From: an uncultured Bifidobacteriaceae bacterium
GTDB taxonomy: Bacteria; Verrucomicrobiota; Verrucomicrobiia; Limisphaerales; UBA11358
NCBI GenBank assembly: GCA_964536285.1
Contig: CAZHXG010000004.1
Coordinates: forward strand, 11,121 to 75,120
DNA length: 64,000 bases
Direction of reading: 5' to 3'
Both the position numbers and the translations under genes were made by a program. Below the pieces are notes generated by a model, which saw only the letters and a program-made list of their open reading frames with translations, did not search any database and was not told the origin of the DNA. Positions 30,718 through 61,315 of the stretch are shown here, piece after piece. The stretch's first letter is position 1; each line of letters starts with the position of its first letter.

Positions 30718-30738
30718 GCTATGGGGTGTAACCCTACC
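30718..30738 (-). promoter_or_regulatory. Conserved stress box (copy facing the BON operon)
   Basis: The minus strand reads GGTAGGGTTACACCCCATAGC. It lies 80 nt upstream of the BON start. Confidence 0.6.
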
Positions 30739-30800
30739 GTGAATTGCTGGAGGCGTTCTCGCGGTAAACTGTTTCAGCCCGTCTGGAGACAATCGGCGAG

Positions 30801-30820
30801 TCGGGTTTTACCCCATATAC
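30801..30820 (+). promoter_or_regulatory. Degenerate stress box (copy facing the two-component operon)
   Basis: TCGGGTTTTACCCCATATAC keeps the GGGT-N3-ACCCCAT core. It lies 70 nt upstream of the ATG at 30881. Confidence 0.4.
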
Positions 30821-30880
30821 AAGTCCAGGCACCCGACAGATACTGACTGCGAACTGGTAACAGGTGAATTCGTCATAACC

Positions 30881-31579
30881 ATGAAACGAAAGTTGATCAA
30901 GTTGTCACAACGATACGTGACAGCGTTGCGAAAACACCTGAAGCCGGGATTACGCCGGAGCTTGCAGCCGGCGCTGGGACTGGGACGCCAGGCTGTCGTG
31001 CTCGGGCTCGAGACGCTGGAACTGGCCCGAATTCACGAGAAGGCGATCACCACACTGGAATTATCCAAAAGTAAAAACGGCTTTACCAGGCAGGCGGAGA
31101 TTTTTTTTACCGAGGCCATCACCCCGATCGTGGAGACGCATCGCGCCGCGCGGCAGAGCAAGATTCAACTGGACCGGCTGAACGAGACGCTGAACCGGCG
31201 AACGGTGGAACTGGCCGCCACGAACCGTCAGTTGCGACACGGCATCGTCCGCCGCAAGTGCGTGGAAGCCGCCCTCAAGAAAAGCGGCGAACACTACACC
31301 AGATTGTTGAAGGATTCCCTGCAACTGCAGGAAGGCTTGCGGCAACTGACGCATCAGGTGCTGGCGGCGCAGGAGGATGAACGCAAGAAGATCAGCGGCG
31401 AACTTCAGGACGAAATCGCCCAGACGTTGCTGGGCATCAATGTCCGCCTGCTCTCGTTGAAACAGGAGGCACGGAACAACACCAAGGGTCTGAAGAATGA
31501 AATCGCCAGCACACAGCGGTTGGTGGTAAAATCGGCCAAGTCCGTGCGGCGGGTCGCCCGTGAATTCGGCAGCTCATGA
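30881..31579 (+). CDS. Truncated histidine-kinase paralog: RsbU_N-like helical domain, coiled coil and first DHp helix, with phospho-acceptor His replaced by Gln and no ATPase domain
   Basis: 232 aa, colinear with residues 1-230 of the next gene. The H-box reads ISGELQDEIAQTL versus ISRELHDVIAQTL in the neighbour. The stop overlaps the next start (ATGA). Confidence 0.8.
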   Translation: MKRKLIKLSQRYVTALRKHLKPGLRRSLQPALGLGRQAVVLGLETLELARIHEKAITTLELSKSKNGFTRQAEIFFTEAITPIVETHRAARQSKIQLDRLNETLNRRTVELAATNRQLRHGIVRRKCVEAALKKSGEHYTRLLKDSLQLQEGLRQLTHQVLAAQEDERKKISGELQDEIAQTLLGINVRLLSLKQEARNNTKGLKNEIASTQRLVVKSAKSVRRVAREFGSS

Positions 31580-32742
31580 AAGCCAAATTTTTTAGACACT
31601 ATCAGTCGGCATTGCTGAAGTATCTCAAGCAATGCCCCGGCGGACGCCTGCAATCGGCGCACGGCATGGGACGGCAGGCGCTGGCCGCCGGCCTGCAGAC
31701 GCTCGACGTGGCCAAGCTCCACGAGCAGATATTGATCACCCAGGTGTTGCCGGGCCTCCCGGCCGGCAAACGCGCCACGCTCATCAAGCAGGCGGGTGCT
31801 TTCTTCACCGAGGCGATCACCCCGATCGAGAAAATTCATCGCGGCGCGCACGAGGCCGCTGTCCACCTGAACCAGATCGTCGAGATGTTGAGCCAGCGCA
31901 CAGTGGATCTGGCCGCCTCGAACCTGGAATTGGAACAGGAAATCACCCAGCGCAAGGCGGTGGAGGTGGCGCTCAAAAAAAGCGAGCACCATTACAGCCA
32001 GTTGCTGGAACAATCGGATCACCTGCAGGAGCAGTTGCGCCAATTGTCCCGCCAGATCCTCTCGACACAGGAGGAGGAGCGCCGGGAGATCAGCCGCGAA
32101 CTGCATGATGTCATCGCCCAGACTTTGACGGGCATCAACGTCCGGCTCGCGGCCTTGAAAAAGGAGGCCGCGCTCAACACCAAGGGTCTCGACCGCAACA
32201 TCGCCCGCACGCAACGGCTGGTGGAAAAATCGGTGAACATCGTGCATCAGTTCGCCCGCGAATTGCGCCCGGCAGTGCTGGACGATCTCGGCCTGATCCC
32301 CGCGCTGCATGCGTTCGTCAAAAATTTTTCCAAGCGGACGGGCGTCCACGTTCACATGAAGGTCTTTGCGGGGGTTGAACAACTGGACAACAGCAAACGC
32401 ACGGTGCTCTATCGCGTCGCGCAGGAGGCGCTGACCAATGTCGCACGCCATGCAAAAGCCGGACGGGTGGAAGTGAACATTCAGAAGCTTCACGGTGCCG
32501 CCCGCATGGAAGTCAAAGACGACGGCAAATCCTTTCAAGTGGAGCGCGTCATCCATTCCAAGGAAAATAAACGATTGGGACTGCTCGGCATGAGGGAGCG
32601 CGTCGAAATGGTCGGCGGCACTTTTTGCGTCGAGTCCGCGCCCGGCCGCGGCACCACCATCCGGGTGGAGATTCCATTCAAACACGTCCCGAAGGACGCG
32701 CTGAAAAAATCCGGTAAAAAAACCACACTAGAATGTCCATGA
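31576..32742 (+). CDS. Cytoplasmic sensor histidine kinase (RsbU_N-like N-terminus, HisKA_3, HATPase_c)
   Basis: H-box ELHDVIAQTLTGI, N-box QEALTNVARHA, G-boxes DDGKSF and GLLGMRERVEMVGG. No TM segment. Confidence 0.9.
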   Translation: MKAKFFRHYQSALLKYLKQCPGGRLQSAHGMGRQALAAGLQTLDVAKLHEQILITQVLPGLPAGKRATLIKQAGAFFTEAITPIEKIHRGAHEAAVHLNQIVEMLSQRTVDLAASNLELEQEITQRKAVEVALKKSEHHYSQLLEQSDHLQEQLRQLSRQILSTQEEERREISRELHDVIAQTLTGINVRLAALKKEAALNTKGLDRNIARTQRLVEKSVNIVHQFARELRPAVLDDLGLIPALHAFVKNFSKRTGVHVHMKVFAGVEQLDNSKRTVLYRVAQEALTNVARHAKAGRVEVNIQKLHGAARMEVKDDGKSFQVERVIHSKENKRLGLLGMRERVEMVGGTFCVESAPGRGTTIRVEIPFKHVPKDALKKSGKKTTLECP

Positions 32743-33416
32743 AACGAATCACTGTCCTGTTGGCCGAAGACCACACCATCGTGCGCGAGGGGTTCCGCAA
32801 GATGCTCGAACTTGAAGACGACTTTGAAGTCGTCGGCGAAGCGCCGGACGGGCGGCAGGCCGTCACGCTGGCCAAAAAACTCCGTCCCGACGTGATGTTG
32901 ATGGACATCGCGATGCCCCTGCTCAACGGCCTGGAAGCCACCCGCCAGATTCTCAAGGCCGTCCCCGGCACCAAAATAGTCATCCTCTCCGCGCACAATG
33001 ACGATGCGTATGTCAAAAATGCGAGCGAGTCCGGCGCGATGGGATTTCTGCTCAAACAAAACTCCTCCCACGTGGTGTGCGAGGCCATCCGGCAGGTGCA
33101 AAAGGGGAAAGCGTTTTACGGCCCGACGGTCGCCAGGCGTCTCGAACGCATCAATTCCAAATCGTCCAACGGCTCGAAACCAAACGGCAAGAAAATTTCC
33201 AAACTGACTTCGCGCGAGATGGAAGTGCTCCAGCTCATCGCCGAGGGCAAGGCCAACAAGGAGACCGCGTCGGAACTGGGCATCGGCATCAAGACCGTCG
33301 AGAAGCATCGCGAGCATCTCATGGAGAAGCTCGACATCCACGACACCGCCGGACTCACCCGCTACGCCATCAGCGCGGGCATCATCGAGAGCAGCGTCCA
33401 GTTGACCATCGTTTAG
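32733..33416 (+). CDS. NarL/LuxR-family response regulator (REC plus GerE-type HTH)
   Basis: ITVLLAEDHTIVREG...DVMLMDIAMP, and a C-terminal LTSREMEVLQLIAEGKANKETASELGIGIKTVEKHREHLM. Confidence 0.93.
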   Translation: MSMKRITVLLAEDHTIVREGFRKMLELEDDFEVVGEAPDGRQAVTLAKKLRPDVMLMDIAMPLLNGLEATRQILKAVPGTKIVILSAHNDDAYVKNASESGAMGFLLKQNSSHVVCEAIRQVQKGKAFYGPTVARRLERINSKSSNGSKPNGKKISKLTSREMEVLQLIAEGKANKETASELGIGIKTVEKHREHLMEKLDIHDTAGLTRYAISAGIIESSVQLTIV

Positions 33417-33750: not shown

Positions 33751-34028
33751 TTCCGCCAATCGCGCCGCAGGCGAGACTGCTCCGTCCTGAATTTTGCGGT
33801 CCCGCCCTGAAAATTTTTATTGACCCCGAATACTCCGATATGATTTAACAATTTCAGGTTCGGGCGGGTCGGATTATGGACTGGGTCAGGGTCACAAGTG
33901 TGATTTGGGAAAGGGCACGGGGACGCAAAGGTCTTCGCGTTTTCCCGTCCCGTGATACTTTCGCGCGGTGTCGCGCAGCGACCCGCCGGTCTGCCCCGGC
34001 CATTTTTAGCCGAGTCCCCACCCCCGGG

Positions 34029-34350
34029 CGGCGCGTCACCATCATCAGGCGGCGCGCCGTAATCATTTTTACACGCGGAAACTTCATCCGCACGCGTGTC
34101 GCAACCATTTTTACGCGCGTAAACTTCGTCCGCACGCGCGTGGCGATGATTCTTACGCAAGGAATAATCATTCCCACGCGAGTAAACTTCATTCCCACGT
34201 GCGTGGAAATCATTCCTACGCACGTAAACTTCATCGGTGCGCGCGTAAAAATCATTCCTACGCACGTAAACTTCATCGGTGCGCGCGTGGAAATCATTTT
34301 TACTCACGTAAAAACCGTTCCCACGCACGTAAAAATCATTTTTACGCACC
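34029..34350. repeat. Tandem array of about 15 units of a 21-bp repeat with a 42-bp higher-order structure
   Basis: Units start at 34050, 34071, 34092 and so on to 34344, exactly 21 bp apart. Two alternating types: ACGCACGTAAACTTCATCGGT and GCGCGCGTGGAAATCATTCCT. The stretch CCTACGCACGTAAACTTCATCGGTGCGCGCGT is repeated exactly at a 42-bp offset. Confidence 0.9.
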
Positions 34351-36617: not shown

Positions 36618-36640
36618 AATGGGTAAAACACCCCATAGCG
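36618..36640 (+). promoter_or_regulatory. Conserved stress box (variant) heading the signalling operon
   Basis: AATGGGTAAAACACCCCATAGCG. The ATG at 36671 lies 40 nt after the first C of CCCCAT. Confidence 0.5.
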
Positions 36641-36670
36641 CCCTCTAGTTGACCACCTTAACCTTATGTT

Positions 36671-36850
36671 ATGAAGAGCAGTCATGGGAATGGGAATAAG
36701 GGATTGACGCTGGGTGAATTCATCATGGTCGCATACGACACCTGGGGTAAACGACGAGCCGGACAGATTGTGCGGCTCGCCATCAACACACGCTTGGTCG
36801 AGTTCCGAGGACAACGACGCCTTGTGTTTTCCAAGTGGAGTCTCAATTAA
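36671..36850 (+). CDS. Possible 59-aa leader protein of the signalling operon, below the ORF-track cutoff
   Basis: My hand translation gives MKSSHGNGNKGLTLGEFIMVAYDTWGKRRAGQIVRLAINTRLVEFRGQRRLVFSKWSLN. It ends 12 nt before the dual-receiver gene and has the box-to-ATG spacing seen at other boxes. Confidence 0.35.
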   Translation: MKSSHGNGNKGLTLGEFIMVAYDTWGKRRAGQIVRLAINTRLVEFRGQRRLVFSKWSLN

Positions 36851-36862
36851 ATTTACGATTTT

Positions 36863-37792
36863 ATGACCAAACTCCTTAAAGCTCCTATTGAGCAAGACAT
36901 TGCCGCGCCGGCGCAGAACCAAACGAATCCGCCCCAGCGCATTCTTCTGGTGGATGATGATTTTTACGTGCGCGAACTGAATGCCGGGGTCCTGATCCGC
37001 TACGGTTACAAGGTTGACACCGCTGATGACGGCGCCGATGCATGGAAGGCTCTCAATGAAATCCGTTATGATCTTTTGATCACCGACAATAAAATGGCAA
37101 GGGTGTCGGGACTGGAGTTGATCAAGAAACTGCGTTCCGTGGACATGACGCTGCCGGTCATTCTGGCGTCGGGAACGGCGCCGACGGAGGAGTTAAAGCG
37201 GCACCCGTGGCTGAAACTTGACGCCACGTTGCCCAAACCTTTCACCGTCGCACAGTTGTTGGACACGGTTAAAAAAGTCCTGCGAACTCCGGACAGCAAC
37301 AATTCCAAACTTGATATGAAGACCAACATAATCCCGCGAATCGAAGAACCGGCCATCGCGCCGGCTCAACGACAAACGAATCCGGCGCAACGCATTCTCG
37401 TGGTGGATGACGACAGTGACGTCCGCCAATTGAGCGTTGATGTGCTGACCGGCTGCGGCTACGACGTTGCAGGCGCCAAGGACGGTGCCGACGGCTGGGA
37501 CGAACTTCAGTCCAACATCTATGACCTCGTCATCACCGACAATAAAATGCCCCGGATGACGGGCATCGAGATGCTCGAAAAAGTGCGTTCCGCGCGCATG
37601 TCGCTGCCGGTCATCATGGCCACGGGACATTTGCCCACGCATGAATTTGCCCGCAAGCCGTGGCTGACACCCGACGCCACGTTGCAGAGGCCGTTTTCGG
37701 CTGATGATTTAGTAAAAGTGGTGAAAAAAGTCCTGCGTCCGGAAGACGGCAGCACCGGTCGCAAAGAGGCGTCTTTCCCGATATATCTCTGA
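36863..37792 (+). CDS. Tandem double-receiver (REC-REC) response regulator without an output domain
   Basis: Two internally duplicated modules, PAQ.QTNP.QRIL.VDDD...DL.ITDNKM...LPVI.A.G...PWL..DATL..PF. Confidence 0.88.
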   Translation: MTKLLKAPIEQDIAAPAQNQTNPPQRILLVDDDFYVRELNAGVLIRYGYKVDTADDGADAWKALNEIRYDLLITDNKMARVSGLELIKKLRSVDMTLPVILASGTAPTEELKRHPWLKLDATLPKPFTVAQLLDTVKKVLRTPDSNNSKLDMKTNIIPRIEEPAIAPAQRQTNPAQRILVVDDDSDVRQLSVDVLTGCGYDVAGAKDGADGWDELQSNIYDLVITDNKMPRMTGIEMLEKVRSARMSLPVIMATGHLPTHEFARKPWLTPDATLQRPFSADDLVKVVKKVLRPEDGSTGRKEASFPIYL

Positions 37793-37819
37793 ATGATGTG
37801 CGTTTGGTAAATCGCCGCG

Positions 37820-39070
37820 ATGATGCCGGGCAAACGGGATTCAGGTGGAAGCGGAATGAAAACCAACGATCATCAAAACGGGAACGGCAACGGGGCGCGA
37901 ACGGAGCTGACGCTCCGCGCCTCCGAACTCCGTTACCGGCGGCTGTTCGAAGCGGCCAAGGACGGCATCCTGATTCTGGACGTTGACACGGGGCGAATCG
38001 ACGATGTGAACCCCTTCCTCTTCCATCTCCTGGGTTTTTCCCGCGATGAAATGATCGGCAAAACCGTCGGCGAGCTGAGTCCGTTCAAGGACATCGAGGA
38101 GAACAAGGTCATGCTCTCGCGGTTGCAAAAGGACGGATATGTCCGCTATGAAGATTTGCCGCTGGAAACGAGAGACGGTCGCAAGATGGCCGTGGAGTTT
38201 GTCAGCAACGTGTATCCAGCCGGTGACCACGACGTGATCCAATGCAACGTTCGCAACATCACGGAGCGCAAACATGCGCAAGATGAAATACACCGCCTGA
38301 ATGCAGAACTGGAGCAACGTGTCGCCGAGCGGACGGTGCAACTGGAAGCCACCAACGCGAAACTGGAAACCTCCAACGGGGAAATGGAGTCGTTCAGTTA
38401 TTCCGTTTCCCACGATTTGCGCGCGCCGCTGCGCCATATCATGGGCTTCGTGGAACTGCTGCAAAAAGACGCAGGGCCGTCGCTTTCAGAAAAAAATCGC
38501 CGCCATCTGACGGTCATTTCCCAGTCGGCAAAACACATGGGAAATTTGATTGATGACCTGCTGTCCCTCTCGCGCATCGGACGTGCCGGAATGCAAAAGA
38601 CGGAGTGCGATCTCAATCGGTTGGTTCAGGAGGTGCTGGGCGATTTTAAAGAAGAGACGAAGGAGAGAAATATCGTCTGGGAAATCGATCCGTTGCCGGC
38701 AGTACAGGCCGACTGTTCCCTGCTGCGCATGGTGCTGGTCAATCTGATCTCCAATGCGGTGAAATTCACCGGCAAATGCGCCGAGGCCAAAATCGAAATC
38801 GGTTGCGTTCCCGGTCGGGACGACGAGACGGTGATTTTTATTCGCGACAACGGCGCGGGTTTCGATCCGCGTTATGTCCACAAACTGTTCGGCGTATTTC
38901 AACGCCTGCACAGCCAGGACGAGTTCGAGGGCACGGGCATCGGGCTGGCGAACGTCCAGCGCATCATTCTCCGGCACGGTGGCCGGGTATGGGCGGAGGG
39001 CGTGGTGGATGGCGGCGCGACATTTTACTTTTCGATTCCAAAACAAGACAAAGGCGTCAATGGACACTGA
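37820..39070 (+). CDS. PAS-domain sensor histidine kinase (HisKA, HATPase_c)
   Basis: PAS region (YRRLFEAAKDGILILD), H-box FSYSVSHDLRAPLRHI, and G-boxes DNGAGF and GTGIGLANV. An alternative start lies at 37856. Confidence 0.92.
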   Translation: MMPGKRDSGGSGMKTNDHQNGNGNGARTELTLRASELRYRRLFEAAKDGILILDVDTGRIDDVNPFLFHLLGFSRDEMIGKTVGELSPFKDIEENKVMLSRLQKDGYVRYEDLPLETRDGRKMAVEFVSNVYPAGDHDVIQCNVRNITERKHAQDEIHRLNAELEQRVAERTVQLEATNAKLETSNGEMESFSYSVSHDLRAPLRHIMGFVELLQKDAGPSLSEKNRRHLTVISQSAKHMGNLIDDLLSLSRIGRAGMQKTECDLNRLVQEVLGDFKEETKERNIVWEIDPLPAVQADCSLLRMVLVNLISNAVKFTGKCAEAKIEIGCVPGRDDETVIFIRDNGAGFDPRYVHKLFGVFQRLHSQDEFEGTGIGLANVQRIILRHGGRVWAEGVVDGGATFYFSIPKQDKGVNGH

Positions 39071-41544: not shown

Positions 41545-41572
41545 TTACTTCACAGACCAACCGACTGATGAT

Positions 41573-47659: not shown

Positions 47660-47661
47660 TT

Positions 47662-52759: not shown

Positions 52760-53163
52760 CAGGTCGCCGTGAAATACATCAACCCATGAAGCAAATTTGA
52801 AGTTGTGAAAGCATCCTTTGAAACTGGTGGCGACAAACCGCGATTAGGTCAACCTGAAAACAGGCGAATCCGTTCCAATGCATTCTCATGGTCAGGGACG
52901 ATGAATCTGCCAACACTAAATCAAACTCGCTTTAGGAACGCCAGTCGAGGATTGAGCGAGCTTTGGATGGACACAAACTGTGAAAGCAAAAGTATTCGAA
53001 GTCATTCTCCATAAGCTGTCATCTGGCAAGTCGTCGGCAAACGCTATTGAGGAATAGTTCAACAGCTTTCTTGTGCAACACCCGAACCTTCGAGCGGTGG
53101 TGGCGCACGCGGTTACAGAAAATTTAGCATTAAAAAACATAACAAATAAAAACGACAGAAAAT

Positions 53164-53469
53164 ATGAACAAACATACTCAAGCAACCAGCAATGACATGG
53201 GCACGCTCGCCGAAGATGCGCGCGCCTTGATGGCCGCCACCGTGGACGTGGCCGGGGAAAAAGTCGGCGAAGCCCGCAAACGTCTCGCGGCCGCGCTGGA
53301 ACGCGCCAAGGAAATCGCGGGCAACGTTCGTGACAAAGCGGTCGCGGGCGCGAAAGCCACCGACGAAGCCGTGCGTGAACATCCTTATCAAGCCATCGCC
53401 ATCGGCGTTGGTGTCGGAGCGATTCTCGGTTATATCATGGCTCGCCGGTGCTCCCGCAGCCGCGACTGA
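53164..53469 (+). CDS. DUF883 (ElaB/YqjD family) membrane-anchored stress protein
   Basis: 101 aa ending EHPYQAIAIGVGVGAILGYIMARR, the canonical C-terminal anchor of YqjD/ElaB. Confidence 0.85.
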   Translation: MNKHTQATSNDMGTLAEDARALMAATVDVAGEKVGEARKRLAAALERAKEIAGNVRDKAVAGAKATDEAVREHPYQAIAIGVGVGAILGYIMARRCSRSRD

Positions 53470-53476
53470 TTTCGTT

Positions 53477-53866
53477 ATGGAAGAATCCACTGCCAGCTTC
53501 GGGCAACTCGCCTCAACCTCGAAACAGTTTGCGCAACGCTTGTTGACCATCGGGGAAAACCGGCTCGAACTGTTGGCGGTGGAAGTGCAGGAGGAACGCG
53601 AGCGACTCCTGCACGCCATCCTGCTGGCGCTCGGCGTGGCGGCGCTCGGTCTGCTCGCCGGCATTACACTCACGGCTGCCATCGTGGTTTTGTTGTGGGC
53701 GTGGTCACAAGTGGCCGTCCTGCTGATATTGACCGGCCTTTACGGAGCAACCGGGGTTTGTCTTTATCGGCGACTCACCAAACTGTTGCGTGACTGGCAA
53801 ACGCTCTCCGTTACGCTCGATCAACTCCGAAAGGATCGAACATGTTTGGAAAAAATATTCTCATGA
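53477..53866 (+). CDS. YqjE-like (DUF1469, phage-holin-family annotation) membrane protein
   Basis: 129 aa from the ATG at 53477, with two TM helices. It holds the position after DUF883 as in the E. coli yqjD-yqjE-yqjK arrangement. Confidence 0.65.
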   Translation: MEESTASFGQLASTSKQFAQRLLTIGENRLELLAVEVQEERERLLHAILLALGVAALGLLAGITLTAAIVVLLWAWSQVAVLLILTGLYGATGVCLYRRLTKLLRDWQTLSVTLDQLRKDRTCLEKIFS

Positions 53867-54171
53867 ACCCGCTCACATCCCGGAAAAAACTTCTGATTGC
53901 GGAAAGCGAACTCAACCGCGCACAACTGGTTCAGGAATTGGAGACGATGGCGGACGAAGTCCACTCGCTCGCAAATCAGGCCAGAACCATCAGTTCCTTT
54001 GCGTCAACCGCCGTATCGTTGGTTGCAGGTCTTGCGTCTTTCCGACGCAAAAAGTCCGCGCCCGCTGCCGAAAAACCTTCACGGTGGCAGACTATCTTGA
54101 AAGGCGCGCAATTGGCCGGTTCGCTCTGGTCGGAATTTCGTTCACACCGTCGCGATCGGGACGGACTTTAA
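53863..54171 (+). CDS. YqjK-like protein
   Basis: The ATG at 53863 overlaps the previous stop (ATGA); an alternative start lies at 53842. The N-terminal LIAESELNRAQL helix and one TM match the YqjK pattern. Confidence 0.55.
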   Translation: MNPLTSRKKLLIAESELNRAQLVQELETMADEVHSLANQARTISSFASTAVSLVAGLASFRRKKSAPAAEKPSRWQTILKGAQLAGSLWSEFRSHRRDRDGL

Positions 54172-54185
54172 TTCGTAATATCCGC

Positions 54186-54206
54186 GGTAGGGTTACACCC
54201 CATAGC
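54186..54206 (+). promoter_or_regulatory. Conserved stress box
   Basis: GGTAGGGTTACACCCCATAGC. The ATG at 54237 lies 39 nt after the first C of CCCCAT. Confidence 0.6.
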
Positions 54207-54236
54207 GCCTGCAGGTTTTTGAACTATTCTCATTCC

Positions 54237-54692
54237 ATGAATTACAAAGAACTTTTCTTCCGAACCGACAAAGCCGGATTCGCGTTGGGTGCTGTGCTTC
54301 TGGCGATGTTGACCGGATGCGTGGGTTACGTTGATGGTCCACGCGCCGGCGTATATGTAGCACCGCCGGTGGTGGAAACTGCAGTCGCGGTGCAAGACGA
54401 CTATGTTTATTACCCCAACTATGAAGTCTATTACAGCAGCAGCCGGCATCAATACGCTTACCTGGAAGGTGGCGGATGGGTTTCGCGCCCAGCGCCGCGT
54501 GGAGTGTCAGTCAATGTACTGCTTGCTTCACCTTCAGTAAGGATGAATTTCCACGATTCCCCGGCGAATCACCACGCGGAGATTGTTCGGCAGTATCCGA
54601 AAAATTGGAAGTCGTCCGGCTCGCATCAAGGCCAGAAAGAAAATCGCAAGGACGACAAACAAAACGATCACGGAGAAAATAACGGAAGATAA
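54237..54692 (+). CDS. Putative lipoprotein, hypothetical
   Basis: Lipobox LTGC after a hydrophobic segment, and a basic Lys/Asn/Asp-rich tail. Confidence 0.55.
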   Translation: MNYKELFFRTDKAGFALGAVLLAMLTGCVGYVDGPRAGVYVAPPVVETAVAVQDDYVYYPNYEVYYSSSRHQYAYLEGGGWVSRPAPRGVSVNVLLASPSVRMNFHDSPANHHAEIVRQYPKNWKSSGSHQGQKENRKDDKQNDHGENNGR

Positions 54693-54728
54693 ACAAGCGA
54701 ACCACATTCGCACATCGAAAGGAACGTT

Positions 54729-54884
54729 ATGTTGGGAACTGTTTTATTGATTGTACTCATCCTTATGTTGCTCGGCGCACTTCCCACGTGGCCACACAGC
54801 AAGAATTGGGGTTATTACCCGAGCGGCGGATTGGGACTGATTCTGGTGATTCTCATTGTCCTGCTTTTGCTTGGTAGAATTTGA
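54729..54884 (+). CDS. DUF3309-family small membrane protein (51 aa), not in the ORF track
   Basis: My hand translation gives MLGTVLLIVLILMLLGALPTWPHSKNWGYYPSGGLGLILVILIVLLLLGRI. The LPTWP...WGYYPSGGLG core is diagnostic of DUF3309. Confidence 0.75.
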   Translation: MLGTVLLIVLILMLLGALPTWPHSKNWGYYPSGGLGLILVILIVLLLLGRI

Positions 54885-54995
54885 ACAGGCTGGGCTGTAC
54901 TCCATCGGTCGTAAGGGTTTCCGGTTGACTAGACAGAATACCGGGCAAGTTATTTTTGGGTAACGGTTCGCGCAATTTCCGCGAAAGACAAATTT

Positions 54996-55712
54996 ATGTT
55001 ACGAAGCATTAAACAATTATACGGAAACAAACTTGGTGCGTCAGATGGCGAGATCGGCCATGTGAAGAATTTTTATTTTGACGTTCAGAACTGGGCGGTG
55101 CGTTATCTGGTCGCTGAAACAGGAACATGGTTGACGAGCCGTCAGGTGCTGCTCTCGCCTCATACCTTGGGTAACGCTGATCCATCTAGTAAAGTTTTGT
55201 CTGTCAACCTGACCCGGAAACAGATTGAGGATAGTCCTTCGCTAGAATGGCATAAGCCGGTATCCCGACAATATGAGGAGGAGTATTACCGATATTACGG
55301 CTGGCCCCGCTACTGGCAGGGTGACGGGTTGTGGGGTATGAATGATTTTCCAATTTTGAAACGGCCTGCAAGACATTTTCCAAGCAAACCAATCACTACG
55401 ATTGATTCGCAACACGAACGTTCCGATACGCATCTGCGTAGCACGCAGGCCGTGAAGACCTGCCACATCCAAACCGGCGATGGAATCATCGGCCAGGTCT
55501 GCGATTTTATGATGGACGCCCGAAGCTGGGCGATTAGTCATCTGGTCATCAAAACCACCGATCATCGACTTTCGGCCAGGGAGATAAAAATACCGACGGG
55601 CAAAGTTGACCGGATCAATTATGAGGAATCCACGATGTTCATAAATTTGACCGGTAAAGTCGTCGGACAGAGACCCGCACACCGTTTAACTCCGGCTGTT
55701 GCGGCAGATTGA
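54996..55712 (+). CDS. PRC-barrel domain protein (two barrels)
   Basis: GASDGEIGHVKNFYFDVQNWAVRYLV, and a second copy TGDGIIGQVCDFMMDARSWAISHLV. Confidence 0.8.
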   Translation: MLRSIKQLYGNKLGASDGEIGHVKNFYFDVQNWAVRYLVAETGTWLTSRQVLLSPHTLGNADPSSKVLSVNLTRKQIEDSPSLEWHKPVSRQYEEEYYRYYGWPRYWQGDGLWGMNDFPILKRPARHFPSKPITTIDSQHERSDTHLRSTQAVKTCHIQTGDGIIGQVCDFMMDARSWAISHLVIKTTDHRLSAREIKIPTGKVDRINYEESTMFINLTGKVVGQRPAHRLTPAVAAD

Positions 55713-55718
55713 CGCCGT

Positions 55719-55740
55719 TATAGGGTGAACACCCCATAGC
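55719..55740 (+). promoter_or_regulatory. Conserved stress box (variant with a 1-nt longer spacer)
   Basis: TATAGGGTGAACACCCCATAGC. The ATG at 55773 lies 41 nt after the first C of CCCCAT. Confidence 0.55.
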
Positions 55741-55772
55741 GAACACACCGTTGCACAGTTTATTCTCCATGT

Positions 55773-56024
55773 ATGAAACATAATAAATTTCCCCAAAACC
55801 AAAAACCGGCCGGCGCTTTGCGGCCAACTGCGGCGACGGACTTGAACCGAAATGAAATTGATTTTGCACCCGCACCGGAAGAAGTGGCCAGAAAGGCATA
55901 CTTCAGTTACGTGAACCAGGGTTCGTCGCAAGGGCACGAGGTGCAGCATTGGCTGGAAGCCGAATCGCAATTGCTCGCGGAACGCAAACTCACCCGGACT
56001 CATGGGTTTCACAACAAGACCTAA
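55773..56024 (+). CDS. DUF2934-like small protein
   Basis: EEVARKAYFSYVNQGSSQGHEVQHWLEAESQLL matches the DUF2934 A..AY......G...G...D.W..AE..L pattern. Confidence 0.6.
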   Translation: MKHNKFPQNQKPAGALRPTAATDLNRNEIDFAPAPEEVARKAYFSYVNQGSSQGHEVQHWLEAESQLLAERKLTRTHGFHNKT

Positions 56025-56048
56025 AACAAATTATCCAGATGGCCAATC

Positions 56049-56258
56049 ATGAAAGACCCGGTCTATAAACTCATCGAACTCACCGGCACATCCGCTACCT
56101 CCATTGAGAACGCGGTTGAGAAGGCCATAAAACGCGCACACAAAACCATCAAGAACCTGTGCTGGTTCCAAGTGATCGAAACGCGCGGCAACATCGAAAA
56201 GGGAAAGGTGCATCACTGGCAGGTGACCATCAAAATCGGTTTCGCCGTGAAAGACTGA
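56049..56258 (+). CDS. Dodecin family flavin-binding protein
   Basis: 69 aa. VYKLIELTGTSATSIENAVEKAI...WFQVIETRG...HWQVTIKIGF is typical of dodecins. Confidence 0.82.
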   Translation: MKDPVYKLIELTGTSATSIENAVEKAIKRAHKTIKNLCWFQVIETRGNIEKGKVHHWQVTIKIGFAVKD

Positions 56259-56301
56259 ACACCATCAAGCGCGAAAGCTGCAGTTTAATTTTAAAAATAT
56301 T

Positions 56302-56787
56302 ATGACTAAAGAACACACGACAGCAGGATTGAATATCACTCGCAAAGAGATGATCGGGTTGTTGAACGAGGATCTGGCCGGAGAATATCAGGCCATCATC
56401 GCCTACACAGTGTATAGCCAGGTGCTCAAAGGAGCCGCTTACACGGACATTGCGCGGGAATTGGAACTGCATGCGGTCGAAGAATTGCAGCACGCAATAA
56501 AGATCGCGAAACAGATTGATTATCTCGGCGGCATGCCGGGCGTCACGCCCAAGCCGGTCAAAACTTCAAGCGACCCCGTTGCCATGCTGCGCGCGGATCT
56601 GGAGAACGAACGGACAACGGTCGGGCGCTATCGCGAGCGCATCCGGCAGGCCGAGGCGATGGGGGAATTCGGGTTGAGCGAAACATTGCGCGCGATCATC
56701 GTGCAGGAGCAGGAGCATGAAATTGATTTGAGCTCTGCGCTCGGCATCGATGTGCCTCCTGCAAAAAATCCTGCAGACAAAAAATAG
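56302..56787 (+). CDS. Ferritin-like (bacterioferritin/Dps-like four-helix) protein
   Basis: LNEDLAGEYQAIIAY..., ELELHAVEELQHA... and IIVQEQEHE di-iron-type glutamate/histidine ligand pattern. Confidence 0.75.
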   Translation: MTKEHTTAGLNITRKEMIGLLNEDLAGEYQAIIAYTVYSQVLKGAAYTDIARELELHAVEELQHAIKIAKQIDYLGGMPGVTPKPVKTSSDPVAMLRADLENERTTVGRYRERIRQAEAMGEFGLSETLRAIIVQEQEHEIDLSSALGIDVPPAKNPADKK

Positions 56788-56810
56788 TCGAAATCCAGCA
56801 AAGGACACCC

Positions 56811-56996
56811 ATGCCTCAAGGTGATAAATCCAGCTATACTGACAAACAGAAACGTCAGGCGGCACATATCGAAGCCGGCTACGAGAAAAAAGGTGTCAGC
56901 ACGAAATCCGCCGAAGCGCGGGCCTGGGCCACCGTCAACAAACTCACCGGCGGCGGCAAAAAAAGCGGCTCCGGAAGAAAACAAGAATTAATTTGA
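56811..56996 (+). CDS. Small basic stress-associated protein
   Basis: 61 aa. SSYTDKQKRQAAHIEAGYEKKGVSTKSAEARAWATVNK resembles a widespread small family that is often annotated as plasmid stabilization protein. Confidence 0.5.
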   Translation: MPQGDKSSYTDKQKRQAAHIEAGYEKKGVSTKSAEARAWATVNKLTGGGKKSGSGRKQELI

Positions 56997-57000
56997 AATT

Positions 57001-57297
57001 GTGCCAGCCTTGACCGCCAAGCAAATAAATCTTCGCTTGAAAACCATTCCGGACTGGGCGAAGCGCGCGCAAACCATTTGCCGCACATTCAAGTTTGAGG
57101 GATTCCTGATGAGCATCGCTTTTGTGCGTCGAATCGCCAAACAAGCTCAAAAAATCAATCATCATCCGGATATTGACATTCGTTTTGACAAGGTGACGTT
57201 GACGCTCACCACGCATGACGAAGGAGGAATCACCGGAAAAGATTTCCTGCTGGCCGGGCAATGCGACGTGGTCTTCTCCAGATTTTCTGCGTCTTGA
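57001..57297 (+). CDS. 4a-hydroxytetrahydrobiopterin (pterin-4-alpha-carbinolamine) dehydratase
   Basis: 98 aa with a GTG start. FKFEGFLMSIAFVRRIAKQAQKINHHPDIDIRFDKVTLTLTTHD is the PCD signature. Confidence 0.85.
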   Translation: MPALTAKQINLRLKTIPDWAKRAQTICRTFKFEGFLMSIAFVRRIAKQAQKINHHPDIDIRFDKVTLTLTTHDEGGITGKDFLLAGQCDVVFSRFSAS

Positions 57298-57349
57298 ATC
57301 AACGCAATTTCACATCGTACAAACAGCCGGGGCGTCCTCGGACAATCAC

Positions 57350-57370
57350 GGTAGGGTTACACCCCATGGG
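57350..57370 (+). promoter_or_regulatory. Conserved stress box
   Basis: GGTAGGGTTACACCCCATGGG. It lies 78 nt upstream of the ATG at 57440. Confidence 0.55.
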
Positions 57371-57439
57371 CACGGCATAAGTGGTCGCGTAAAATTCCAT
57401 AGAAATAACGGCAAATGAATTGCCATTAAAAAAAGACTT

Positions 57440-58012
57440 ATGAATACCAATGCAAAATCACAACACGCGGCAGAACAATACAAGCCGCAGTTTCTGAAGC
57501 TCATTTTCAACTCCGCATCAGCCACGATGACCATGGTCTTGTTGGCGTTGGGAATTCTGGTTCCAAGTGCAAACGCAGCAACGACCATCTCCACGGCGGA
57601 TCAAGACTTTATGCTGGCGGCTGCCCAAGGCGGCATGACCGAGGTGAAGCTCGGCGAACTGGCTTCCACCAACGGGGTGCGTGACGATGTCAAGTCGTTC
57701 GGCCAGATGATGGTGAAGGATCACACGGCCATCAATGACGACCTGAAGGCATTGGCCGCGCAAAAGGGCGTGACCTTGCCCGACAGCCTGGATGCAACAC
57801 ATCAGGCGATGGTGGATAAATTTACGGTCTTGACCGGTTCGAAATTCGACGACGCATATATCAGGGGCATGATCAAAGCCCATCAAAAGGACGCCACGGC
57901 ATTCAAAACCGAATTTGTCGCCACGCAGGACGCGGATATTAAAAACTTCCTCGATAAATCCATTCCCGTTGTGGAAGCGCATTTGCAGCACGTCATAGCC
58001 CTGAGGAAATAA
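57440..58012 (+). CDS. DUF4142-domain exported protein
   Basis: Signal peptide, then DQDFMLAAAQGGMTEVKLGELA and a second half-repeat (FDDAYIRGMIKAHQKD), as in DUF4142. Confidence 0.7.
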   Translation: MNTNAKSQHAAEQYKPQFLKLIFNSASATMTMVLLALGILVPSANAATTISTADQDFMLAAAQGGMTEVKLGELASTNGVRDDVKSFGQMMVKDHTAINDDLKALAAQKGVTLPDSLDATHQAMVDKFTVLTGSKFDDAYIRGMIKAHQKDATAFKTEFVATQDADIKNFLDKSIPVVEAHLQHVIALRK

Positions 58013-58048
58013 AGTTTCGATACGATCACACCAAAAAAAATTAAAAAT

Positions 58049-58501
58049 ATGAAAACACCCATCATTGAACGCGACCTGACCAAACAAGCCCCGCACAGCC
58101 CGCGCGAACGCATCGCCGGATTCGCCATCGCCGACCGCACCACGGATAAATGCCGCGCCAGTCTGGCCGGAAAGTTGGGCGAATATCATTACGATTGTCC
58201 GCTCGACAATATGCTTTTCAGTTTCAAGGGCATCACCAGCCACGAGTTCAAATCCGCCGTCCAAGCCGCGAAAAATTATGAAGACGTCGGCGTCTGGTTG
58301 CAGGCCAATGGCACAAAAAAAACCCCGGCTGAAATCAAAACATGGTCGGATGAAGTGGAGGCCGGCAGCATGATGAAAAATCCCGAAAAGCGCGCTTACT
58401 TCATTGAGGAATGCAAGAAGCTCGGACTGAACCCGGAGAAGAGCACCACGTTCGACTGGCTTGAAGCGGACGACCGCGCGAGTTTTCGCCACGCAACCTG
58501 A
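58049..58501 (+). CDS. DUF5069-like protein
   Basis: 150 aa. SPRERIAGFAIADRTTDKCRASLAGKLGEYHYDCPLDNMLF matches my memory of DUF5069. Not verified. Confidence 0.5.
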   Translation: MKTPIIERDLTKQAPHSPRERIAGFAIADRTTDKCRASLAGKLGEYHYDCPLDNMLFSFKGITSHEFKSAVQAAKNYEDVGVWLQANGTKKTPAEIKTWSDEVEAGSMMKNPEKRAYFIEECKKLGLNPEKSTTFDWLEADDRASFRHAT

Positions 58502-58512
58502 AGCCGTTTCGC

Positions 58513-60498
58513 ATGAGAAAAGTCGGATCAATCCCGGGAATCCGCACTTTGGCGCTGGTGATTTTTTCGCTATGCCTTTCGCAGTTCGCACACGCGCAGG
58601 GACGAACCGTTGGCGGCACAAATTCGCCGGCAACGAAAACCGTTGTTCTTCCCAAATCCGTTCCCGATCCCATCGAGCCGTTCAATCGCGCGATGTGGGA
58701 TTTCAATGTGGGGCTGATGACCGACGTCATCAAGCCGACGAGCAAAGTTTACCGGTTCATCGTCGTGAAACCGGTCCGGACCGGCATCGGAAATTTTGGC
58801 AAAAACCTCACTTATCCTGGACGGCTAATCAATAATCTGTTCCAAAGAAAGTGGAGCGGAGCGCGCGAAGAATCCTACCGGTTTGTTTGCAATACCACTG
58901 TCGGCGTGGCCGGGTTCTGGGACGTGGCGACCAAATGGAAGATCCCCAAATCAGACGCGGATTTCGGCCAGACGTTCGGCAAATGGGGCTGGAAGCCGCA
59001 ATGTTTCATCATGCTGCCGGTTTTCGGGCCGAGCAATGAACGCGACACCCTCGGCCTCGCCGCCGACACCGCCGCCAACCCGCTGCTCTATATTGCTCCC
59101 TACAAATTTGTCGCGAATGATCCGCTGACCTATCTCGGCCCTTACACTTATTTCACCTACGCGGTCATGTATAACGATTTGTCCGACAGCGTGGGCGAAT
59201 ATGTGCGCTTCAGTCAGGCTGAAATGGACCCGTATTCCGAAATCCAATACGCATGGACGTTCGCGCGCGCGAACCAGGTGGCCGATTTCCAGGTGAAGGG
59301 AAAACAGGACGAAGCCTCGCTTGAAACTCTCGAATCCGTTTTCTTCACCTATCAAGACCCTGACTTTCCGGGCCGGGGCAAAACCGGTTCGGCTTTGATT
59401 CCGGCGACGGGCCGGAAACTAAAATTCACGTTTTGGTTGCAGCCGGGAAAAGCGCCTGTGGTTTATATCGTTCCCGGTCTTGGTTCGCATCGTCTGGCCG
59501 AAAATTCCCTGGCGCTCGCCGAGCTGATTTACAAAAACGGCTTTTCCGTCGTGAACGTCAGCAGCCCTTTCAATTCCGAGTTCATGGAAAACGCCTCGAC
59601 TGCCGCGTTGCCGGCCTATCTGCCCGCAGACGGTCATGACTTGCATGTCGCTCTCACCGAAATTGATCATCGCTTGAATAAATTGTATCCAACTCGCTTG
59701 GGCGACAGGGCATTGATGGGCTATTCGTTGGGCGCATTCGATTCTTTATATGTCGCAGCCACCGAACCGACGAACCAATTGCCTGCCGCGCCGAAGCCTG
59801 GCGAAGGCGGGCCGCTGATCAAATTCGACCGCATCGTCGCCATCAACACACCCGTCCGACTGGCGCAGGGAATTTCCAAGCTGGATGAATTTTACCGCGC
59901 GCCCTTGAGCTGGCCGGAAACGAACCGCACCGACAACATCGAAAATACTTTTCTCAAGGTCGCCGTCTTAAGCAAACTTTCCCTCACGCCGCGTTCCTCC
60001 CTGCCGTTCAGCGCCATCGAATCCAAGTTTCTCATCGGCCTGACGTTCCGGTTCATGCTGCGCGATATTATTTACAGCAGCCAGCGGCGGCACAATGAGG
60101 GCGTCCTGCGACATCCGATTCACAATTTTCGCCGCGCGCCTGTCTATCAGGAAATCCTCCAATATTCCTACGAGGATTATTTTGAGAAATTTGCGATTCC
60201 ATATTATGAGGCCCACGGCCTTGGAGCAGACGCGCCGGAAACGCTGCAAAAAGCTGGTGACTTGCGGACGTATGATGCGGGTCTACGCGCCAATCCCAAC
60301 ATCCGCGTCATCGTCAATGAAAACGATTTTCTTCTGGCTGACGAAGATCTGGCATGGCTTCGCGCCACGTTCGCGCCGGAACAACTAACGGTTTTCAATC
60401 GGGGTGGTCACTTGGGAAATCTTACCAATCCGACCGTGCAAAAAACAATTTTAAGGGCGCTCGCGAATCTGAACCCGCCACAGCACAAATCCAAGTAA
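58513..60498 (+). CDS. MlaA/VacJ-family lipoprotein fused to a C-terminal alpha/beta-hydrolase-like domain
   Basis: The N-terminal 250 aa is MlaA-like (DPIEPFNRAMWDFN...TTVGVAGFWDVAT). The C-terminal ~400 aa carries a GYSLGA nucleophile-elbow-like motif. Confidence 0.8.
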   Translation: MRKVGSIPGIRTLALVIFSLCLSQFAHAQGRTVGGTNSPATKTVVLPKSVPDPIEPFNRAMWDFNVGLMTDVIKPTSKVYRFIVVKPVRTGIGNFGKNLTYPGRLINNLFQRKWSGAREESYRFVCNTTVGVAGFWDVATKWKIPKSDADFGQTFGKWGWKPQCFIMLPVFGPSNERDTLGLAADTAANPLLYIAPYKFVANDPLTYLGPYTYFTYAVMYNDLSDSVGEYVRFSQAEMDPYSEIQYAWTFARANQVADFQVKGKQDEASLETLESVFFTYQDPDFPGRGKTGSALIPATGRKLKFTFWLQPGKAPVVYIVPGLGSHRLAENSLALAELIYKNGFSVVNVSSPFNSEFMENASTAALPAYLPADGHDLHVALTEIDHRLNKLYPTRLGDRALMGYSLGAFDSLYVAATEPTNQLPAAPKPGEGGPLIKFDRIVAINTPVRLAQGISKLDEFYRAPLSWPETNRTDNIENTFLKVAVLSKLSLTPRSSLPFSAIESKFLIGLTFRFMLRDIIYSSQRRHNEGVLRHPIHNFRRAPVYQEILQYSYEDYFEKFAIPYYEAHGLGADAPETLQKAGDLRTYDAGLRANPNIRVIVNENDFLLADEDLAWLRATFAPEQLTVFNRGGHLGNLTNPTVQKTILRALANLNPPQHKSK

Positions 60499-60518
60499 CC
60501 ACTGAAAATTTTCTGCGC

Positions 60519-61253
60519 ATGAAACCCGAAGCTCCCGCAATCGTCAGCCGGGCGATTCCAGTTGCCGCCAGATGGCAGCCCGCTGTTCGGAAAAATAAAA
60601 TTCCGCTGGTCGCGAAAGTGGCCGCCACCGTTTTTCTCGCCGTCCTTGTTCCGGTCTATTTGCACACCTATGGGCCGACCAATTTTTTATGGTTCTGCGA
60701 CGCCGCGCTCATTCTCACGGTGGCGGGGATGTGGTTGGAAAATTCCCTGCTTATCAGCATGTGCGCCGTGGGCATCCTGCTGCCGCAATGTTTCTGGCTC
60801 GCGGATTTTGGCGTCAACCTTCTGGGATTTCACTTTCTGAACCTGACCGGTTATATGTTCGATTCACACCTTCCTCTTTTCACGCGAGGACTCTCGCTCT
60901 TTCATGGCTGGCTGCCGTTGCTGCTCGTCTGGCTTCTGATTCGCTTGGGCTACGACAAACGGGCTTTGTCCGCTTGGACCGGTCTGGCCGTGGGGTTGGT
61001 GTTCGTCTGCTACTTTTTTACCCCGCCCGCCGGCGCGCATCCGGTAAATCCCAACATTCCCATCAACCTGAACTATCTTTATGGTTTCAACGACCAGCAG
61101 CCGCAACGCTGGGTCAACCAAAACATTTATGTCGTCCTGTGGTTTGGCGTATTGTGGCTCGTCGCCTTTTTCCCCACCCATCTGGCCCTGCGCAAAATCT
61201 TCGCCGCACCACAGCCGGCAATCGGCCTGAAACTTCCCATCCGATTTCTTTGA
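60519..61253 (+). CDS. Polytopic membrane protein, hypothetical
   Basis: 244 aa from the ATG at 60519, with about 6 TM helices. The upstream part of the track ORF overlaps the preceding gene. Confidence 0.55.
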   Translation: MKPEAPAIVSRAIPVAARWQPAVRKNKIPLVAKVAATVFLAVLVPVYLHTYGPTNFLWFCDAALILTVAGMWLENSLLISMCAVGILLPQCFWLADFGVNLLGFHFLNLTGYMFDSHLPLFTRGLSLFHGWLPLLLVWLLIRLGYDKRALSAWTGLAVGLVFVCYFFTPPAGAHPVNPNIPINLNYLYGFNDQQPQRWVNQNIYVVLWFGVLWLVAFFPTHLALRKIFAAPQPAIGLKLPIRFL

Positions 61254-61294
61254 TCATTCCAATTTGTTCGACAGATTTGGATTTATAAATATTT

Positions 61295-61315
61295 GGTAGG
61301 GTTACACCCCATGGC
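61295..61315 (+). promoter_or_regulatory. Conserved stress box
   Basis: GGTAGGGTTACACCCCATGGC, preceded by TTTATAAATATTT. The ATG at 61348 lies 41 nt after the first C of CCCCAT. Confidence 0.6.

Follow-up and report, generated by a model that had tools for sequence, protein, structure and literature searches.

A promoter-proximal box associated with a NarL-family two-component operon and stress-type genes in Verrucomicrobiota and related bacteria

The 64,000-nucleotide stretch of DNA analysed here (the window) is part of contig CAZHXG010000004.1 of assembly GCA_964536285.1, assigned to the order Limisphaerales of the Verrucomicrobiota. It carries eight copies of a box of approx. 21 nucleotides (nt), distributed between positions 30,718 and 61,315, and these were proposed in an initial annotation to mark an undescribed stress regulon. 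The locus thus raises the question of what such a box is: the site of a dimeric regulator, a promoter element read by an alternative sigma factor, or a repeat. We conclude with high confidence that it is a promoter-proximal protein operator which defines a conserved regulon. It is also probable that this operator serves activation rather than repression.

The box and its position in the promoter

All eight copies listed in the initial annotation were found at their coordinates and on their strands. Comparison with the predicted open reading frames (ORFs) placed every copy between ORFs and aimed at the adjacent downstream one, as had been claimed, with one box per promoter. Six occurrences of the exact core GGGTNNNACCCCAT were counted in the window, all of them within these copies, compared with 0.00 in 100 dinucleotide-preserving shuffles of the window; the remaining two copies, at 36618-36640 and 55719-55740, are variants in which the spacer is longer. 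The common form in the window is asymmetric and has a 3-nt spacer (TAGGGT-WAC-ACCCCA). A looser scan for two half-sites recovered seven of the eight copies and one additional match (shuffle mean, 2.1). The latter, at position 54812 on the minus strand, lies inside the DUF3309 gene, is devoid of the CAT, and is probably a chance occurrence. The same scan detected no box in bases 1-30,700, and the eight boxes therefore constitute a discrete island of 31 kb.

In order to examine the promoter context on independent material, a genome collection was scanned for the exact 18-mer GGTAGGGTWACACCCCAT, which was found in at least 120 stretches of 8 kb. Among the matches listed, most of the stretches are labelled Verrucomicrobiota (Limisphaerales/Pedosphaera, Verrucomicrobiales, Akkermansiaceae and Opitutae), and further labels are Lentisphaerae, Kiritimatiellae, Pirellulales and Acidobacteriota; this spread across phyla is a lower bound and is not quantitative. 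The 141 unique sites of the 120 listed stretches and the window were aligned, with the first C of CCCCAT taken as position 0. Conservation beyond the searched 18-mer was confined to R+6, G+7 (131/141), C+8, T+28 (90), A+29 (104) and T+33 (111), the last three of which belong to a −10 hexamer. Apart from this hexamer, positions beyond −13 to +9 carry almost no information. Weakly conserved A/T-rich positions (−19 to −17) nevertheless adjoin the box on its 5′ side, in agreement with the AT-rich DNA that had been remarked upon 5′ of several copies. The commonest form of the box, GGTAGGGTWACACCCCAT(A/G)GC, is an asymmetric variant of the palindrome ATGGGGTG-WW-CACCCCAT.

Visual inspection of the window copies revealed a −10-like hexamer approx. 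21-22 nt past CCCCAT, followed after 6-7 nt by an A, which opens an ATG in five of the eight. A looser definition of the box yielded 199 sites with a 3-nt spacer and 86 sites with a 4-nt spacer. In the former, TAnnnT starts at exactly +28 in 108 sites and at +27 to +29 in 142, the background elsewhere being 0-4 per position. An ATG is located at +39 to +42 in 59 of these 199 sites and in 24 of the 86 (other positions, ~0-9), and the pile-up is sharpest at +40/+41, which is 7 nt past the end of the −10 hexamer. Since the start codon of a leaderless mRNA is also its 5′ end, the peak of ATGs indicates a predicted start at +40/+41 independently of the −10 hexamer, and the occurrence of an ATG at the predicted start in ~30% of the sites implies leaderless mRNAs. 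The initial annotation was correct in noting a distance of 39-41 nt between the first C of CCCCAT and five ATGs of the window (36671, 52524, 54237, 55773 and 61348). This spacing would be explained by the position of each ATG at the predicted start of a leaderless mRNA. Two of the genes concerned encode a 151-amino-acid (aa) protein and a DUF2934 protein, and their orthologues have preserved this offset (+39 to +41).

The fixed −10 hexamer and the ATG pile-up place the box at approx. −52 to −32 relative to the predicted start, with CCCCAT at −40 to −35 and the centre of symmetry near −43. The corresponding −35 hexamer, T(A/G)GC(G/A)A at +5 to +10, begins with the T of CCCCAT and is weak, with no more than three of six matches to TTGACA in 110 of 134 sites. 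The −10 hexamers share 3-5 of six positions with TATAAT, a count that includes the T, A and T positions of TAnnnT by which the sites were selected. A generic promoter scan of the window passed box 7 only (TGGGCA-17-TAAAAT), in the same register. Two features are expected of a class II activator site, i.e. a centre between −41.5 and −43.5, next to or overlapping the −35 and at a fixed distance from the −10, and a poor −35 combined with a recognisable −10; both were found, the first of them with respect to the predicted start. We infer from this position that the box is a putative class II activator site on a sigma-70-type promoter.

The initial annotation had interpreted the core as an imperfect inverted repeat, as predicted for the operator of a dimeric helix-turn-helix (HTH) protein. 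This view gained support from relatives which carry perfect 9-2-9 palindromes (TATGGGGTGAACACCCCATA; TATGGGGTG-WW-CACCCCATA), often between divergent genes, and which point to a dimeric HTH protein as the probable ligand. Palindromic sites have −10-like hexamers on both sides in 16 of 65 cases. In the asymmetric sites the −10 is downstream of the CCCCAT half in 169 of 226 and lies in the opposite direction in none; the CCCCAT half always faces the promoter, which indicates that these promoters are one-directional. The palindrome, the fixed face and distance to the −10, the poor −35 and the strict orientation together argue for the operator of a dimeric class II-type activator. The claim of a co-oriented set of promoters preceding stress-type genes is supported.

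The two-component operon as candidate reader of the box

Box 2 precedes an operon of three plus-strand genes, which encode a two-component system. The first gene (30881-31579) codes for a pseudo-histidine kinase, in which Pfam recognises an RsbU_N-like N-terminal domain and a HisKA_3 dimerisation (DHp) domain. This protein is devoid of an ATPase domain and carries Gln in place of the phospho-accepting His (ELQDEIAQ), a change shared by ~79 of 99 short kinase paralogues across loci; the DxxxQ motif is retained. This motif is linked to phosphatase activity in HisKA_3 kinases, so the pseudo-kinase could be either an anti-kinase or a phosphatase dedicated to this system. The second gene (31576-32742) encodes a histidine kinase, composed of an RsbU_N-like N-terminal domain, a HisKA_3 domain with the conserved His (2.7e-13; ELHDVIAQ) and HATPase_c (5.3e-16), and it adjoins the regulator gene. 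The resemblance of the N-terminal domains of both kinases to RsbU_N is weak, and Pfam detected no membrane-sensor domain in the kinase encoded at 31576-32742.

The third gene (32733-33416) encodes a response regulator of the NarL/LuxR family, with a receiver (REC) domain (Response_reg, 3.7e-28) and a C-terminal GerE/LuxR-type HTH (GerE, 1.4e-17), which is the architecture of NarL/FixJ regulators. Its closest solved relatives are VraR, DesR, NarL and DevR, VraR being nearer than DevR (E = 1e-23). The regulator could be placed in no named orthologue group of NCBIfam (NarL, UhpA, DevR, LiaR, MctR and others), where the best model, MctR, scored 188.7 bits against a cutoff of 300 and all equivalogs were below cutoff; NarL, NarX and UhpB are among the relatives below cutoff. 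Thousands of homologues of the regulator are present in environmental sequences, under generic names only. The search of a large protein database returned only close relatives (at least 79% identity) and had no wider phylogenetic reach, and the sample of metagenome loci kept solely relatives at 66-83% identity.

The operon and the box are associated well beyond the window. Among the listed 120 stretches, which had been selected by the motif, the commonest neighbours are the genes of the regulator (25), the kinase (24), a BON-domain protein (22) and the pseudo-kinase (22). Most of the relatives checked show the operon with a box of its own, and these include Limisphaerales, Akkermansiaceae (L016), Spartobacteria (L118) and Kiritimatiellae (L107). 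A GC-rich contig with the label Acidobacteriota (L052) carries the kinase and regulator genes after a lipoprotein gene that is box-driven and has the same orientation. In a reciprocal test, 80 metagenome loci were fetched by the kinase N-terminal domain alone (alignment A1), with the box ignored. The strict box is present in 39 of the 53 evaluable loci, mostly ~103-106 nt upstream of the operon, and in 13 of the other 14 a degenerate box, including three ACCTGAT forms, is recognisable in the same upstream stretch. The density of boxes in these kinase-selected loci is 0.46/kb, compared with ~0.03/kb in shuffles of the window, which were examined with a slightly looser scan. From Limisphaerales to Kiritimatiellae the HTH of the regulator is near-invariant (LTSREMEVLQLIAEGKANKETAxELGIxIKTVEKHRExLMxKLDIHDTAGLTRYAI), in parallel with the box. 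Among the box-driven genes of the window that were scanned with Pfam, the regulator gene is the only one predicted to encode a DNA-binding protein.

We therefore favour, with some reserve, the REC-GerE regulator as the activator that would bind the box at a class II site. According to the proposed mechanism, a stress-related cue would act on the HisKA_3 kinase, modulated by its paralogue lacking both the His and the ATPase domain (as anti-kinase or phosphatase), and the kinase would phosphorylate the regulator. A dimer of the latter would bind the box centred near −43, touch RNA polymerase at the −35 region and recruit the holoenzyme with a housekeeping-type sigma factor to promoters with a weak −35. 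Through box 2 the regulator would raise the expression of its own operon (positive feedback), and it would switch on dispersed stress-protection genes, clustered here in the 31-kb island. The activated set would comprise BON/OsmY-like, DUF3309, PRC, DUF2934, dodecin, ferritin-like, DUF4142 and MlaA proteins, as well as small membrane proteins and a large phosphorelay operon, and about one-third of the transcripts would start, leaderless, at the A of the ATG.

Several points weigh against this interpretation. The link between regulator and box, although strong, is an association, and the operon may be a member of the regulon and not its master. A variant lineage (L158, ~1270; L168, 5146 on the minus and 5225 on the plus strand; L197, 1046) has boxes of the form GGGTATTACCTGATATACA or GGGTTACACCTGATGGC, in which CCTGAT replaces CCCCAT; no standard boxes were seen in it, and its recognition helix is unchanged. 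Indeed, a covariation check found this helix to be invariant across the box variants compared. Were that half read by the regulator alone, a change of the box without a change of the helix would not be expected, and a simple model with a single regulator for the entire box does not account for it. The distal half, GGTAGGGTWA, is strongly conserved and asymmetric, and is not simply a decayed homodimer half-site. The predicted start site rests on the position of the −10 hexamer and the ATG pile-up, and a site overlapping the −35 could, in principle, repress. Outside Verrucomicrobiota the two-component link is found on few contigs, and the labels of metagenome-assembled genomes (MAGs) are fallible. 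Implausible labels include Bifidobacteriaceae (L043, L059, L064, L071, L085, L108 and L110) and Solirubrobacteraceae (L032 and L045); sampled contigs (e.g. L059, L032 and L108) encode proteins 59-89% identical to the Verrucomicrobia proteins of the window, so these family labels look wrong.

The first two of these points also form the case for a genuine operator bound by a different, unlinked transcription factor, with the kinase/regulator operon merely one of its targets. A box-driven gene of the sigma-70 family in one locus (L116, described below) may be added to this case, since it suggests that other regulators belong to the regulon. We consider such a factor unlikely, although it is the alternative that deserves most attention. 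No other DNA-binding protein recurs beside the boxes in 200 loci; the operon has retained a box or its remnant in ~52 of the 53 evaluable loci, a set picked independently of the motif; and a palindrome with GGG/CCC-rich arms, centred near −43, is in keeping with GerE-type dimers.

The overlap with the −35 hexamer, where many repressors act, might instead suggest a repressor operator, at which a bound dimer would block the −35 until stress relieves the repression. This is improbable for several reasons. The −35 to be blocked is already poor in most of the sites, and the distance to the −10 is fixed within ~1 bp across phyla, whereas repressors tolerate variable placement. Moreover, the strict promoter-facing orientation of the proximal half suggests a face-of-helix contact with RNA polymerase, and two-component operons that carry their own box usually show positive feedback.

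A promoter of an alternative sigma factor is still less probable. CCCCAT is the core of the −10 element of Escherichia coli sigma-32, and GGGTA resembles the −10 elements of SigB/SigF; these likenesses, to which the RsbU_N-like domains of the kinases may be added, would make CCCCAT a sigma-32-type −10, as put forward in the initial annotation, or GGGTWA a SigB-type −10. The former proposal was not upheld, because a canonical TAnnnT is fixed at +28 to +33, with the ATG pile-up 7 nt further on, and because no conserved CTTGAA-like element is present 13-15 nt upstream of CCCCAT, a space that the other half of the box occupies. More generally, parts of the box are the only conserved sequence at 13-17 nt 5′ to CCCCAT or GGGT, the conserved blocks are 3-4 bp apart and thus too close to be a −35 and a −10, and the perfect palindromes and their bidirectional use are unlike asymmetric sigma recognition. 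It had been suggested that the lack of a transcription start 5-15 nt past CCCCAT would speak against the regulon; the predicted start is ~40 nt downstream, and that yardstick would wrongly reject a real regulon. A sigma-54 promoter (GG-N10-GC) was rejected as well, the box being out of register as judged by eye.

Finally, a short inverted repeat recurring in intergenic DNA, one 4-nt-spacer copy of which folds better than shuffles (z = −3.2), might be a repeat resembling a repetitive extragenic palindrome (REP) or a miniature inverted-repeat transposable element (MITE), or an RNA hairpin (a terminator or an element of the 5′ untranslated region), rather than a protein site, but this is barely credible: (i) there is no conserved unit or flank past −13 to +9 except the −10 hexamer, and the sites are always gene-oriented (169:0), (ii) the common form has no folding advantage over shuffles (z = −0.37 and +0.46), and a non-complementary A/C position is conserved in more than 200 sites, (iii) Rfam gave no match at the gathering score across the whole window and none even at E ≤ 1 over 52300-61500, and (iv) the box is upstream of the predicted start. 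Both a structured RNA family and a REP/MITE-type repeat were rejected on these grounds. In related DNA the boxes are also depleted in long ORFs: ORFs of 150 aa or more, in any of the six frames, enclose 27% of them completely and yet cover 82% of all bases. They show neither the equal frequency inside genes nor the use of both orientations by which the initial annotation would have recognised REP or MITE behaviour.

Genes downstream of the boxes

Each copy in the window has a predicted promoter and putative target genes. The downstream genes had been described as stress-type cargo, and Pfam confirmed the BON (three domains), DUF3309, PRC-barrel, DUF2934, dodecin, ferritin-like and DUF4142 identities. 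Pterin-4a dehydratase, DUF5069 and MlaA proteins and two regulatory operons complete the cargo in the window. The lmo0937 identity assigned to the 65-aa membrane protein encoded at 52562 was not confirmed by Pfam; DUF5670/lmo0937-like proteins do follow boxes in related loci. NCBIfam provided no names for the small proteins of unknown family. Judging from the roles of these families in the SigB, RpoS and EcfG regulons, the cargo appears to be of the general stress type.

Box 1 (30718-30738, minus strand; GGTAGGGTTACACCCCATAGC) has a predicted −10 hexamer, TAACGT, at 30698-30693 and directs a predicted leader of ~40 nt to a BON-domain gene (ATG at 30646). Box 2 (30801-30820, plus strand, as are all the following boxes; TCGGGTTTTACCCCATATAC) is the putative autoregulatory box of the two-component operon, with a predicted −10, GATACT, at 30839-30844 and a leader of ~30 nt. 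Downstream of this operon, at 34027-34349, there is a tandem array of ~15 copies of a 21-bp unit (periods of 42, 63 and 84 bp were also detected). It is located in a low-GC patch (0.49) between the operon and a gene for a 361-aa membrane protein, and no credible ORF extends over it.

Box 3 (36618-36640) has a degenerate distal half and a predicted −10, TAACCT, at 36659-36664; the ATG at 36671 (+40) opens a 59-aa ORF, predicted to be leaderless. This ORF heads a run of ~16 kb on one strand (36671-52395), which encodes signalling proteins only. Its first genes code for the 59-aa protein, a double-REC protein, a PAS kinase, a REC protein and a hybrid kinase, and the later ones for a 2028-aa Reg_prop/Y_Y_Y/PAS hybrid kinase, a MASE1 hybrid kinase, a REC protein and a REC-adenylate/guanylate cyclase. 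No DNA-binding domain was found in any gene of the run. The genes probably form one operon, and the presence of the REC-cyclase implies a cyclic-nucleotide output downstream of the putative stress regulon.

Box 4 (52472-52492) is followed by a predicted −10, TATGCT, at 52512-52517 and by the ATG at 52524 (+40). The latter opens an upstream ORF (uORF) of 15 codons (52524-52571; MNNKTLIQIGGNICR, then stop), which begins at the predicted transcription start and overlaps, by its stop codon, with the start codon of the gene for the 65-aa membrane protein (52562-52759; ATGTCGCTGA). The uORF (14-15 codons) is kept in 11 loci, in two of them with in-frame 3-nt deletions, which suggests that it is translated and coupled to the main ORF.

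The next two boxes precede predicted leaderless genes, each at the head of several others. Box 5 (54186-54206; predicted −10 TATTCT at 54225-54230; ATG 54237 at +39) is upstream of the 151-aa lipoprotein-like gene, followed by DUF3309 and PRC-barrel genes. Box 6 (55719-55740) is of the 4-nt-spacer form (TAGGGTGAACACCCCA), with a predicted −10, TATTCT, at 55761-55766 and the ATG 55773 at +41; the DUF2934 gene is followed by genes for dodecin, a ferritin-like protein, a 61-aa ORF and pterin-4a dehydratase. In the case of box 7 (57350-57370), the −35 (TGGGCA, 57367-57372) is separated by a 17-bp spacer from the −10 (TAAAAT, 57390-57395), and the targets are DUF4142, DUF5069 and MlaA-like genes and a gene for a 299-aa membrane protein. 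Box 8 (61295-61315; predicted −10 GATGCT at 61335-61340; ATG 61348 at +41) precedes a 79-aa ORF, predicted to be leaderless, and a 133-aa ORF.

Related loci extend this list. The genes downstream of their boxes encode ice-binding-like, YflT-domain, DUF883/ElaB-like and outer-membrane beta-barrel proteins, an AMPK1_CBM protein, PRC and BON proteins and PAS kinases, and inspection of the sequences by eye added one superoxide dismutase-like and one desulfoferrodoxin-like protein. In the Acidobacteriota-labelled locus L116, a box with its −10 hexamer (4402-4500) precedes a gene for a 390-aa protein with sigma-70 region 1.2, and the regulon of this lineage may therefore include a sigma factor.

Two parts of the window lie outside the set of boxes. 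The HSP20 gene (ATG at 63227) has no box. A good promoter-like pair, TTGCAT-17-TAGAAT (within 63190-63229), ends 8 nt before its ATG, and the transcript may be leaderless or near-leaderless under a different control. Positions 1-30,700 contain mainly housekeeping metabolism: genes for pyruvate:ferredoxin oxidoreductase, HypD/HypF/HypE-like hydrogenase-maturation proteins, a NuoF-like subunit, pyruvate phosphate dikinase, an H+-pyrophosphatase, a DeoC-type aldolase and a Ser/Thr kinase.

Implications and comparison with known systems

It is conceivable, though we advance it only tentatively, that the two-component module and its near-invariant box serve as master switch for a general stress or dormancy response in the Planctomycetes-Verrucomicrobia-Chlamydiae (PVC) superphylum (Verrucomicrobiota, Lentisphaerae, Kiritimatiellae and Planctomycetes) and in Acidobacteriota. 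If so, it would be a phosphorylation-driven counterpart of the sigma-based SigB, RpoS and EcfG systems, with a His-less pseudo-kinase as a built-in modulator and a heavy use of leaderless mRNAs, including a leaderless uORF. The breadth across phyla, the pseudo-kinase and the leaderless transcripts would be its standout features.

Soil, peat and water harbour Verrucomicrobiota, Acidobacteriota, Planctomycetes and their relatives in abundance, but few of these bacteria are amenable to genetics; the literature searched contained no general stress regulator for these groups. A box of 18-21 bp, almost letter-perfect across phyla and tied to one conserved two-component system, offers a testable handle. 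With a motif scan, members of the regulon are predictable in any MAG, metatranscriptomes of drying, freezing or starving soils can be read for it, and the regulator is open to in vitro study without genetics. Frequent leaderless mRNAs are, moreover, predicted in Verrucomicrobiota, and the conserved kinase paralogue lacking the His and the ATPase domain is relevant to two-component signalling in general.

The initial annotation did not recognise the box as a described motif, and our searches led to the same result: no description was found in Rfam, in NCBIfam (where the regulator matched no equivalog) or in the literature searched, in which ACACCCCAT matched only primers and unrelated sequences. 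The same literature yielded nothing relevant on a Verrucomicrobia stress regulon, promoter motif, transcription start sites or leaderless mRNAs, and nothing on a LuxR regulator in connection with BON, dodecin or DUF2934.

The kinds of cargo overlap with those of the general stress systems based on SigB (Firmicutes), RpoS (Gammaproteobacteria) and EcfG-PhyR (Alphaproteobacteria). BON/OsmY, YflT, DUF883/ElaB, lmo0937/DUF5670-like, ferritin-like/Dps-like, PRC and dodecin proteins and small membrane proteins are shared in kind, and these families belong to the SigB, RpoS and EcfG regulons. The control differs, since it apparently involves an activator at a housekeeping-type promoter, without the −35/−10 elements of an alternative sigma factor.

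NarL, NarP and NreC share with the present system the regulator family, the HisKA_3 class of kinase and half-sites of the ACCCC or TAGGG type. NarL/NarP heptamers are TACYYMT, arranged as 7-2-7, and the NreC site is TAGGG-N4-CCCTA; the literature search yielded no paper with the NreC motif string, so that this likeness serves as a lead. In contrast to the box, these sites have a different spacing and relative orientation of the half-sites, and they serve respiratory and not stress regulons.

LuxR and TraR invite comparison in promoter architecture. The lux and tra boxes are class II sites, with a palindrome centred near −42.5. A GerE-type HTH dimer (a candidate in the present case), a palindrome of 18-20 bp at approx. 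−42 to −44 which overlaps a weak −35, and a sigma-70-type −10 are common to both. LuxR and TraR, unlike the regulator described here, are ligand-activated and have no REC domain, and the sequence of their box is unrelated.

DevR/DosR of Mycobacterium tuberculosis is, like the candidate of the window, a REC-GerE regulator with an autoregulated operon (autoregulation being predicted in our case) and a regulon of stress and dormancy proteins. The palindromic form of the box, GGGGTG-WW-CACCCC, has the same GGG-N8-CCC outline, and in both systems the promoter-proximal site overlaps the −35 (here with respect to the predicted start). The DevS/DosT kinases carry haem-GAF domains; the kinase of the window has an RsbU_N-like N-terminal domain, its operon is headed by a His-less pseudo-kinase, and the phyla differ. 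A dimer of the DevR DNA-binding domain reads G4G5G6A7C8T9 in each half of its palindrome, and DevR requires at least two tandem boxes and cooperative binding (PMC3177182); its start-proximal site overlaps the −35 element, and it is autoregulated (PMC3177182, PMC3029386). In contrast, the half-sites of the present box are T(G/A)GGGT and ACCCCA, not GGGACT, a single box is present per promoter in the window, and the box is not a Dev box. The system described here is thus probably an undescribed NarL-family regulon, which is akin to both the DosR regulon and the class II promoters of LuxR/TraR and is a member of neither.

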